Below the pieces are notes generated by a model, which ran no database searches, had not been told where the DNA came from, and saw nothing but the letters and a program-made list of their open reading frames with translations. A DNA stretch of 209 bases from Escherichia coli (GTDB taxonomy: Bacteria > Pseudomonadota > Gammaproteobacteria > Enterobacterales > Enterobacteriaceae), in the NCBI RefSeq assembly GCF_003334315.1, contig NZ_QOWR01000144.1. The stretch is one strand, 5' to 3'. Positions 1 to 209 of the stretch are shown here, piece by piece. Every line of letters starts with the position of its first letter. Within the stretch, counting starts at the first letter, position 1. The translations under genes and the position numbers were made by a program.

Positions 1-209
1 AATGGCAGTCACGCATCCAGTTAATAAAGCACTCGTGAAATTTTGCAGGACTGATACAGGATACAACTCTGGCAATGATATCGTGAACAGGAATACCATT
101 TTCAAAATCACCATATCACTTCAAAACATCGGGATGTGTTTCCCCAAAATCCTCTATATCTTCCCAACCTTCTGCACCAGAAATAACGGCACAAATAGTC
201 AACAGTAGA
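1..209 (-). pseudogene. ISAs1-family transposase (H-repeat-associated protein family), internal N-terminal-region fragment, interrupted by an in-frame TGA; partial at both window edges
   Basis: Seen in sequence: minus-strand translation in the frame of + coordinates 2..208 gives [30 protein letters not shown] (+ 119..208), then TGA (+ 116..118), then [38 protein letters not shown] (+ 2..115). Established knowledge, recalled from memory and not searched: E. coli H-repeat-associated proteins such as YhhI carry an N-terminal stretch of roughly ...[69 protein letters not shown].... That leaves only about 3 substitutions plus the stop over 68 codons. No start or natural stop of the gene lies in the window. 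Confidence 0.72.
1..209 (-). mobile_element. Internal fragment of an ISAs1-family insertion sequence (H-repeat element); element ends and inverted repeats lie outside the window
   Basis: Inference from the transposase homology above. ISAs1-family elements are about 1.2-1.4 kb with a single transposase ORF, so a 209-bp window inside the ORF cannot show the termini. The 40% GC (84 of 209 bases) fits a horizontally acquired element if the host is an enterobacterium, but the host is unknown. Confidence 0.6.
116..118 (-). other. In-frame premature stop codon (TGA) within the transposase reading frame
   Basis: Seen in sequence: + strand 116..118 is tca, which reads TGA on the minus strand, in the same frame as the conserved peptide on both sides. 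From memory, intact homologues have a sense codon here (Gln, or possibly Arg; a CGA to TGA change would be a single transition). Confidence 0.7.

Follow-up and report, generated by a model that had tools for sequence, protein, structure and literature searches.

The RhsB element of Escherichia coli has been described since the 1990s, and a paper from the Hill laboratory reportedly gave the H-repeat a length of 1,291 bp, which agrees with the length measured in this work. Insertion sequences of the ISAs1 family are about 1.2-1.5 kb in size, and their target-site duplications comprise roughly 8-10 bp. The H-repeat resembles members of this family, such as ISAs1 of Aeromonas salmonicida and ISArsp11, in that it consists of one ORF with a DDE_Tnp_1_assoc and a DDE_Tnp_1 domain, has a length of approximately 1.3 kb, and is bordered by CAGGG ends (PMC6305408). 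There are also differences. ISArsp11 possesses CAGGGCTGATGC... inverted repeats and a direct repeat of 10 bp (PMC6305408), whereas no such repeat was found at the RhsB-linked H-repeat, and in contrast to the active members of the ISAs1 family, no transposition of an H-repeat has ever been seen (PMC3032704). The site between nikR and yhhJ is Rhs locus 9 of Jackson et al. (PMC2935791), and the RHS region b3481-b3485 is occupied in the strains K-12, B, and Crooks (ATCC 8739) and empty in strain W (PMC3032704). Arrays of orphan toxin and immunity genes have been reported 3' of rhs and cdiA genes (PMC3150448, PMC2935791). The one paper retrieved for yhhI lists sequence variants, and the papers retrieved for ISEc1 concerned only names that begin with the same letters (ISEc10, ISEc12, and mouse iSEC1).

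The closest relative of the sequence studied here is H-rptB (yhhI) of the K-12 RhsB element, termed ISEc1 by PGAP, which occupies the same position between yrhC/yibA' and yhhJ, has the same length of 1,291 bp and the same ends, and is 98.3% identical over the whole element. It differs in that its yhhI gene is intact, whereas the allele of this study contains a TGA at codon 60 as well as four linked missense changes. This allele is present in about 354 of the approximately 1,820 genomes that have an H-repeat at the RhsB site. The arrangement of RhsB and H-repeat is thus already known and fits the published biology of Rhs elements and H-repeats. What is added here is a deletion footprint at the end of an insertion sequence and a nonsense block shared by two loci; these two findings agree with the known roles of IS copies as recombination substrates and leave the current understanding of H-repeat/Rhs elements unchanged.

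Identity of the window

The window, namely, the whole stretch of DNA that was analyzed, comprises 209 bases and has a GC content of 40%. Its six-frame translation yielded a stretch of 69 residues in the second frame of the minus strand, which matched the NCBIfam profile NF033564 (ISAs1 family transposase) with an E value of 9.3e-24 and a score of 84.2 bits, the curated cutoff of this profile being 70 bits. Using megablast, the window was found in 5,214 of 5,426 complete E. coli genomes, at a median of 5 places per genome, and many of these matches were 100% identical and annotated as "yhhI: ISAs1 family transposase." None of the Rfam families matched the window at permissive E values. Within the 1,291-bp H-repeat, the window corresponds to positions 231-439. 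Pfam domains of K-12 YhhI are DDE_Tnp_1_assoc (PF13808), spanning residues 8-94, and DDE_Tnp_1 (PF01609), spanning residues 102-343; the window codes for most of the former domain and lies upstream of the DDE catalytic domain. The single ORF with two domains that characterizes the ISAs1 family is recognizable, as the allele of the window is the 378-codon frame of K-12 yhhI, interrupted at codon 60.

The window is an internal fragment of an ISAs1-family H-repeat (ISEc1-like), and this H-repeat is very probably H-rptB, which forms the distal end of the E. coli RhsB element. The initial annotation had proposed that the window is ISAs1/H-repeat sequence and that it carries no cargo itself. The first statement is borne out by the NF033564 profile and the yhhI-annotated megablast matches, and the second agrees with the finding that the window contains only sequence of the yhhI transposase gene. 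The coordinates of this and further features are provided in Table 1.

Table 1. Features of the window and of the loci with which it was compared. Coordinates with the prefix L refer to the nikR-yhhJ site of ATCC 8739 (L001), E2865 (L002), EC69 (L006), and DETEC-P649 (L007), to the RhsE-type locus beside pptA of O157:H7 PV15-279 (L008), VG1046-3E9 (L009), and ATCC 8739 (L011), and to the RhsA locus of E62 (L012).
Feature	Position	Strand	Details
yhhI codons 30-98 (gene nt 87-295)	window 1..209	(-)	Six-frame translation, NF033564, megablast
Antisense 68-codon ORF, ATG to TAG	window 2..208	(+)	From ORF list; judged spurious
Stop block	window 78..132	(-)	Five substitutions relative to K-12 yhhI, at 78, 117, 118, 127, and 132
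In-frame TGA, yhhI codon 60	window 116..118	(-)	Plus strand reads tca; CAA (Gln) in K-12 yhhI
Locus marker	window 167..167		A in window and K-12 RhsB copy; G in K-12 RhsE copy, one K-12 RhsC copy (ybfD), and stop-block RhsE copies
Motif on core side of H-repeat right flank	L001 11061-11081
67-nt segment abutting H-repeat right end	L001 11082-11148		Absent from Rhs-free EC69
H-repeat, 1,291 bp	L001 11149-12439		Homology edges among five paralogous copies
yibA-like "HEAT repeat" gene (K-12 yrhC)	L001 12436-12786	minus	Cut at codon 116, exactly at H-repeat left terminus
rhsB, RHS core protein	L001 13249-17481	minus	NF041261 RHS_core, 2,645 bits; also TIGR01643, TIGR03696
rhsB, frameshifted	L002 13246-17468
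GntR/PTS/FGGY-kinase/HPr/class II aldolase island	L006 12435-18355
H-repeat with internal deletion	L007 12501-13078
Segment missing from L001, 2,174 bp	L007 13079-15252
Full-length yibA, 280 codons	L007 14764-15606
RhsE-linked H-repeat with TGA block	L008 8723-10369
H-repeat at yncG/pptA locus	L009 10272-11025
VgrG-Rhs element between two H-repeat copies	L011 10691-23285		yncH/pptA locus
rhsB-type tip and yhhH at RhsA locus	L012 5910-14049		yibF/yibH locus

A second ORF, of 68 codons and antisense to yhhI, covers almost the entire plus strand of the window. It is open, with an ATG and a stop codon, in all H-repeat copies compared, as would be the case for a real small gene of the element, but these copies are 94-98% identical, so that little can be learned from the frame being open. 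Almost every substitution that distinguishes the copies alters a residue of this ORF, whereas several are silent in the transposase frame, and PGAP did not annotate the ORF in either ATCC 8739 or E2865. The ORF was rejected on these grounds, and it appears extremely unlikely that it corresponds to a gene.

The RhsB neighborhood

The flanking sequences were inspected in two strains in which the window was found at 100% identity, ATCC 8739 and the bovine strain E2865. In both, the order of genes is nikABCDE-nikR, rhsB, yhhH, a "HEAT repeat" pseudogene, the H-repeat (yhhI), and yhhJ-rbbA-yhiI. The H-repeat is therefore bordered by the Rhs element on one side and by the core genome (yhhJ-rbbA-yhiI) on the other. 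Strain K-12 shows the same layout as ATCC 8739, with an intact yhhI gene and with the yibA-like pseudogene named yrhC.

The features that define RhsB are all found here. The rhsB gene encodes a large RHS core protein, in which both YD repeats and the RHS-associated core end are recognizable, followed by a C-terminal tip that matches DUF4329 (E=1.6e-39), and the small gene yhhH, which overlaps and lies downstream of rhsB, encodes an NTF2-fold immunity protein of the Imm-NTF2-2 family (E=3.4e-26). The tip and YhhH are a predicted toxin/immunity pair. The element is located at the known nikR/yhhJ site, where its presence varies among strains, and its composition is heterogeneous: the GC content is 58-67% in the Rhs core, 33-36% in the tip and immunity genes, 36-44% in the H-repeat, and 52-57% in the neighboring core genes, which is the classical profile of an Rhs composite.

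The initial annotation had anticipated that the flanks of the H-repeat contain either Rhs or O-antigen genes and that anything unusual would sit in this adjacent sequence. The Rhs part of this expectation was confirmed, as Rhs toxin/immunity cargo is present on one side. However, the context of an O-antigen or other surface-polysaccharide cluster was discarded, as no glycosyltransferase, wzx, wzy, or nucleotide-sugar genes were detected within 12 kb on either side of the H-repeat in ATCC 8739 or E2865. Nor is the adjacent sequence unusual, since it contains only a classical RhsB element; the in-frame TGA, which had not been mentioned previously, is a feature of the window itself.

In strain E2865, which harbors a 100% identical window, rhsB is frameshifted. 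Together with the stop codon in yhhI, this implies that the toxin gene and the transposase gene are both pseudogenes in this lineage.

Assignment to one of several H-repeat copies

The yhhI gene of ATCC 8739 differs from that of K-12 at 22 of 1,137 positions. Within the window, five substitutions relative to K-12 form what is referred to here as the stop block, which gives rise to I73, the stop at codon 60, V57, and P55. These substitutions are transmitted together. The exact stop block, taken as a 71-nt sequence, was retrieved from 970 records, and it is also present in ydcC, the H-repeat gene next to pptA at the RhsE/VgrG-Rhs locus, as exemplified by O157:H7 PV15-279 and VG1046-3E9. This second copy, H-rptE, is a paralogous H-repeat that is likewise situated at the distal end of an Rhs element, namely, between yncH and pptA, but it occupies a different locus and has a G instead of an A at the position corresponding to window position 167; the O157:H7 copy furthermore contains a 40-bp insertion and a frameshift.

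The occurrence of an identical 71-nt block in ydcC-labeled copies of O157:H7 and other strains, along with the median of 5 H-repeat copies per genome, leads to the question of whether the window might derive from the RhsE-linked ydcC beside pptA or from a copy elsewhere, in which case it would be flanked by a VgrG-Rhs (type VI secretion) element or by some other island. However, both RhsE-linked copies that were sequence-checked show the mismatch at position 167 (G versus A) and are 99.5% and not 100% identical to the window, and every 100% match that was inspected adjoins yhhJ. In addition, a 71-nt query that combined the TGA with 167A was found exactly in 354 records, and all three of the three records sampled were labeled yhhI, whereas the class with one mismatch was mostly labeled ydcC. 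Because of the inspected 100% matches and the position-167 marker, the window can, by sequence identity, be assigned with high confidence to the RhsB-linked copy between yhhJ and yibA'/yhhH/rhsB, and an origin from another H-repeat copy is improbable. Even if the RhsE-linked copy were the source, the flank of the window would still be an Rhs element.

Predicted loss of transposase function

The TGA at codon 60 truncates YhhI inside its N-terminal domain, before the DDE catalytic domain, and PGAP classified yhhI as a pseudogene with an internal stop in the two genomes ATCC 8739 and E2865. A functional transposase, as is typical of the ISAs1 family, is hence predicted to be missing, as judged from the TGA and the pseudogene call. 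A copy with this TGA is predicted to be unable to make its own complete transposase. Its only present role would be that of a portable 1.3-kb homologous segment that can recombine or undergo gene conversion with the other H-repeat copies, of which each genome has roughly 5. For annotation purposes, the window should be labeled as a yhhI pseudogene in the RhsB-linked H-repeat. Except for the TGA, this allele has an intact ORF of 378 codons, and because of this, the inactivation may be recent or the copy may have been kept homogenized by conversion.

The intact ORF 3' of the TGA may also be read differently. If the TGA were not inactivating, low-level readthrough or bypass could throttle the synthesis of the transposase, or the 59-residue N-terminal peptide could inhibit transposition; either effect would explain the persistence and spread of the TGA allele, which is common, with its block in 970 records, and present at two loci. 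Several observations argue against this scenario, which we regard as very unlikely. The sequence showed neither a recoding signal nor a structured RNA (no Rfam match), and of DDE_Tnp_1_assoc, a domain with 88 positions, the peptide would include only some 52 residues. All five changes of the stop block are either non-synonymous or nonsense, as predicted for relaxed constraint, and even intact H-repeat copies have never been seen to transpose (PMC3032704). Moreover, gene conversion and clonal descent account for the spread of the allele in a simpler manner than a regulatory role of the stop codon does.

The stop block at two Rhs loci

A tabulation of variable sites revealed mosaic patterns among the H-repeat copies. 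The presence of the same nonsense block in two Rhs-linked copies hints at gene conversion, which is of relevance for studies on IS decay and Rhs evolution. In the mechanism that we propose, a short tract with the nonsense block would have been passed between the RhsB- and RhsE-linked H-repeats by gene conversion and would then have spread by descent and recombination. Gene conversion between H-repeat paralogues appears to be the simplest reading of the shared stop block. In ATCC 8739, both H-repeat copies at the RhsE locus carry the non-stop allele, and conversion inside that strain is therefore not evident.

A more far-reaching proposal would be that the nonsense block is not a dead end and that ectopic gene conversion actively spreads this allele among the Rhs-linked H-repeats of different chromosomal loci, where it may be favored because it silences the transposase or generates a short N-terminal inhibitor peptide. 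We consider this very unlikely; if it were true, recombination between Rhs elements could be measured in natural populations of E. coli with H-repeats as the reporter.

The RhsE-type loci show several further particularities. The pptA gene beside the H-repeat of O157:H7 PV15-279 has an internal stop. The yncG/pptA locus of VG1046-3E9 lacks an Rhs element; an IS1 is found there in place of the first 98 nt of the H-repeat, and yncG is interrupted by a stop codon. At the yncH/pptA locus of ATCC 8739, the VgrG-Rhs element is located between two H-repeat copies, one being an intact ydcC upstream of vgrG and the other a 3'-truncated copy beside pptA. The truncated copy is adjoined by ltrA, which encodes a group II intron reverse transcriptase, and an IS1 is located directly downstream of the RHS core gene, before an N-terminally truncated RHS fragment.

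Ends of the element and a probable deletion footprint

The ends of the H-repeat were determined by aligning the K-12 RhsB-, RhsC-, and RhsE-linked copies with the copy of ATCC 8739, and the edges of homology among these five paralogous copies delimit the element of 1,291 bp. Its termini, CAGGGAAAGATCA and CAGGGCAAGATTA, match at 11 of 13 positions and represent imperfect inverted repeats that start with CAGGG; both the size and these ends correspond to those of the ISAs1 family. With only 11 of 13 positions matching, the terminal inverted repeats were not picked out by an automated repeat search of the locus. Inverted repeats and direct target-site duplications had both been named in the initial annotation as signs to look for, and while the former were found, the latter were not: the H-repeat of ATCC 8739 is flanked by ...GTCAACGGC on one side and by AATACAGGA... 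on the other. The best candidate for a duplication is weak, with 6-7 of 9 positions matching between the left flank of DETEC-P649, AATAAAGGG, and the right flank of either ATCC 8739, AATACAGGA, or DETEC-P649, AATACCGGA.

Two short segments on the yhhJ side were also noted in ATCC 8739. The 67 nt that abut the right end of the H-repeat are absent from the Rhs-free strain EC69 and are therefore part of the Rhs element and not of the core genome. The core side of this flank contains the motif GGCCGGATAAGGCGTTTA, which we take to be REP-like.

A comparison of the left end with strain DETEC-P649 is informative. The truncated yibA-like gene of ATCC 8739 retains 116 codons and has an internal stop at codon 82, whereas DETEC-P649 has a full-length yibA. 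As in the published orphan arrays, a leftover immunity-type gene, here yibA', comes after the main rhs gene, its tip, and the associated immunity gene, and DETEC-P649 keeps the full array (yibA, rhs-CT fragment, and sel1 immunity gene); in contrast to these arrays, the array of ATCC 8739 is cut short by the H-repeat, leaving yibA' with its 116 codons and internal stop. Relative to DETEC-P649, ATCC 8739 lacks 2,174 bp, and this missing segment starts exactly at the left terminus of the H-repeat and ends inside yibA. The intact yibA reads ...ATCGAGTCAACGGC/TCAGCG at this point, and the ATCC 8739 type reads ...ATCGAGTCAACGGC/CAGGGAAAG. The right junction, on the yhhJ side, is common to both strains.

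The loss of 2.17 kb at the left terminus of the H-repeat would be explained by an IS-mediated adjacent deletion, a process recognizable by deletions that start precisely at the end of an IS, and a deletion that starts at the left end would also account for the lack of a target-site duplication. Alternatively, a second H-repeat may have inserted into yibA, followed by recombination between the two H-repeats. This route predicts that the reciprocal junction, consisting of the H-repeat right end and the distal half of yibA, exists in some genome. Such a junction was found in none of the 5,426 genomes when a query coverage of at least 80% was required at a single place, although its absence is not proof. 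A one-step adjacent deletion thus appears to be the simpler reading of the left-end footprint than insertion plus recombination. Either route would imply that the H-repeat was once mobile, and for research on IS decay and Rhs evolution, the footprint at the IS end hints at past transposition of the H-repeat.

Variation of the nikR/yhhJ site among strains

The junction between the H-repeat and yhhJ on the right is present in 1,823 of the 5,426 complete genomes, and that between yibA' and the H-repeat on the left in 1,807, indicating that about one-third of the genomes share the RhsB/H-repeat arrangement. Other strains have different sequences at this site. The cerebrospinal fluid (CSF) isolate EC69 has no Rhs element but an island with genes for a GntR regulator, PTS components, an FGGY kinase, and an aldolase between nikR and yhhJ, and its homology to the ATCC 8739 locus stops at position 11081 of the latter and resumes at 17686. 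DETEC-P649 possesses a longer array, consisting of an RHS core gene, several immunity genes, the 280-codon yibA, an orphan rhs-CT fragment, a sel1-repeat immunity gene, an IS630 fragment, and an H-repeat. The nikR/yhhJ site is thus polymorphic, with an accessory content that differs by strain. The initial annotation had stated that an isolated IS remnant in an identical arrangement across related genomes would speak against an accessory context. Comparison with genomes without the insertion revealed a different picture, since the content of the nikR/yhhJ site varies (Rhs element, orphan array, or PTS/aldolase island).

Further details of these strains were recorded. In the island of EC69, the PTS genes are disrupted by an IS1, which is flanked by the truncated fragments of IIC and IIA. 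The H-repeat of DETEC-P649 has an internal deletion of 713 bp, so that 47 nt remain at its right end and 531 nt in its left part; next to it come the IS630 fragment, the sel1-repeat immunity gene, and the orphan rhs-CT fragment. In strain E62, an rhsB-type tip and yhhH are found at the RhsA locus, with yibA, an orphan fragment of rhs, and yibG downstream of them. The RhsA locus of E62 is an example of tips that have been reshuffled between Rhs loci.
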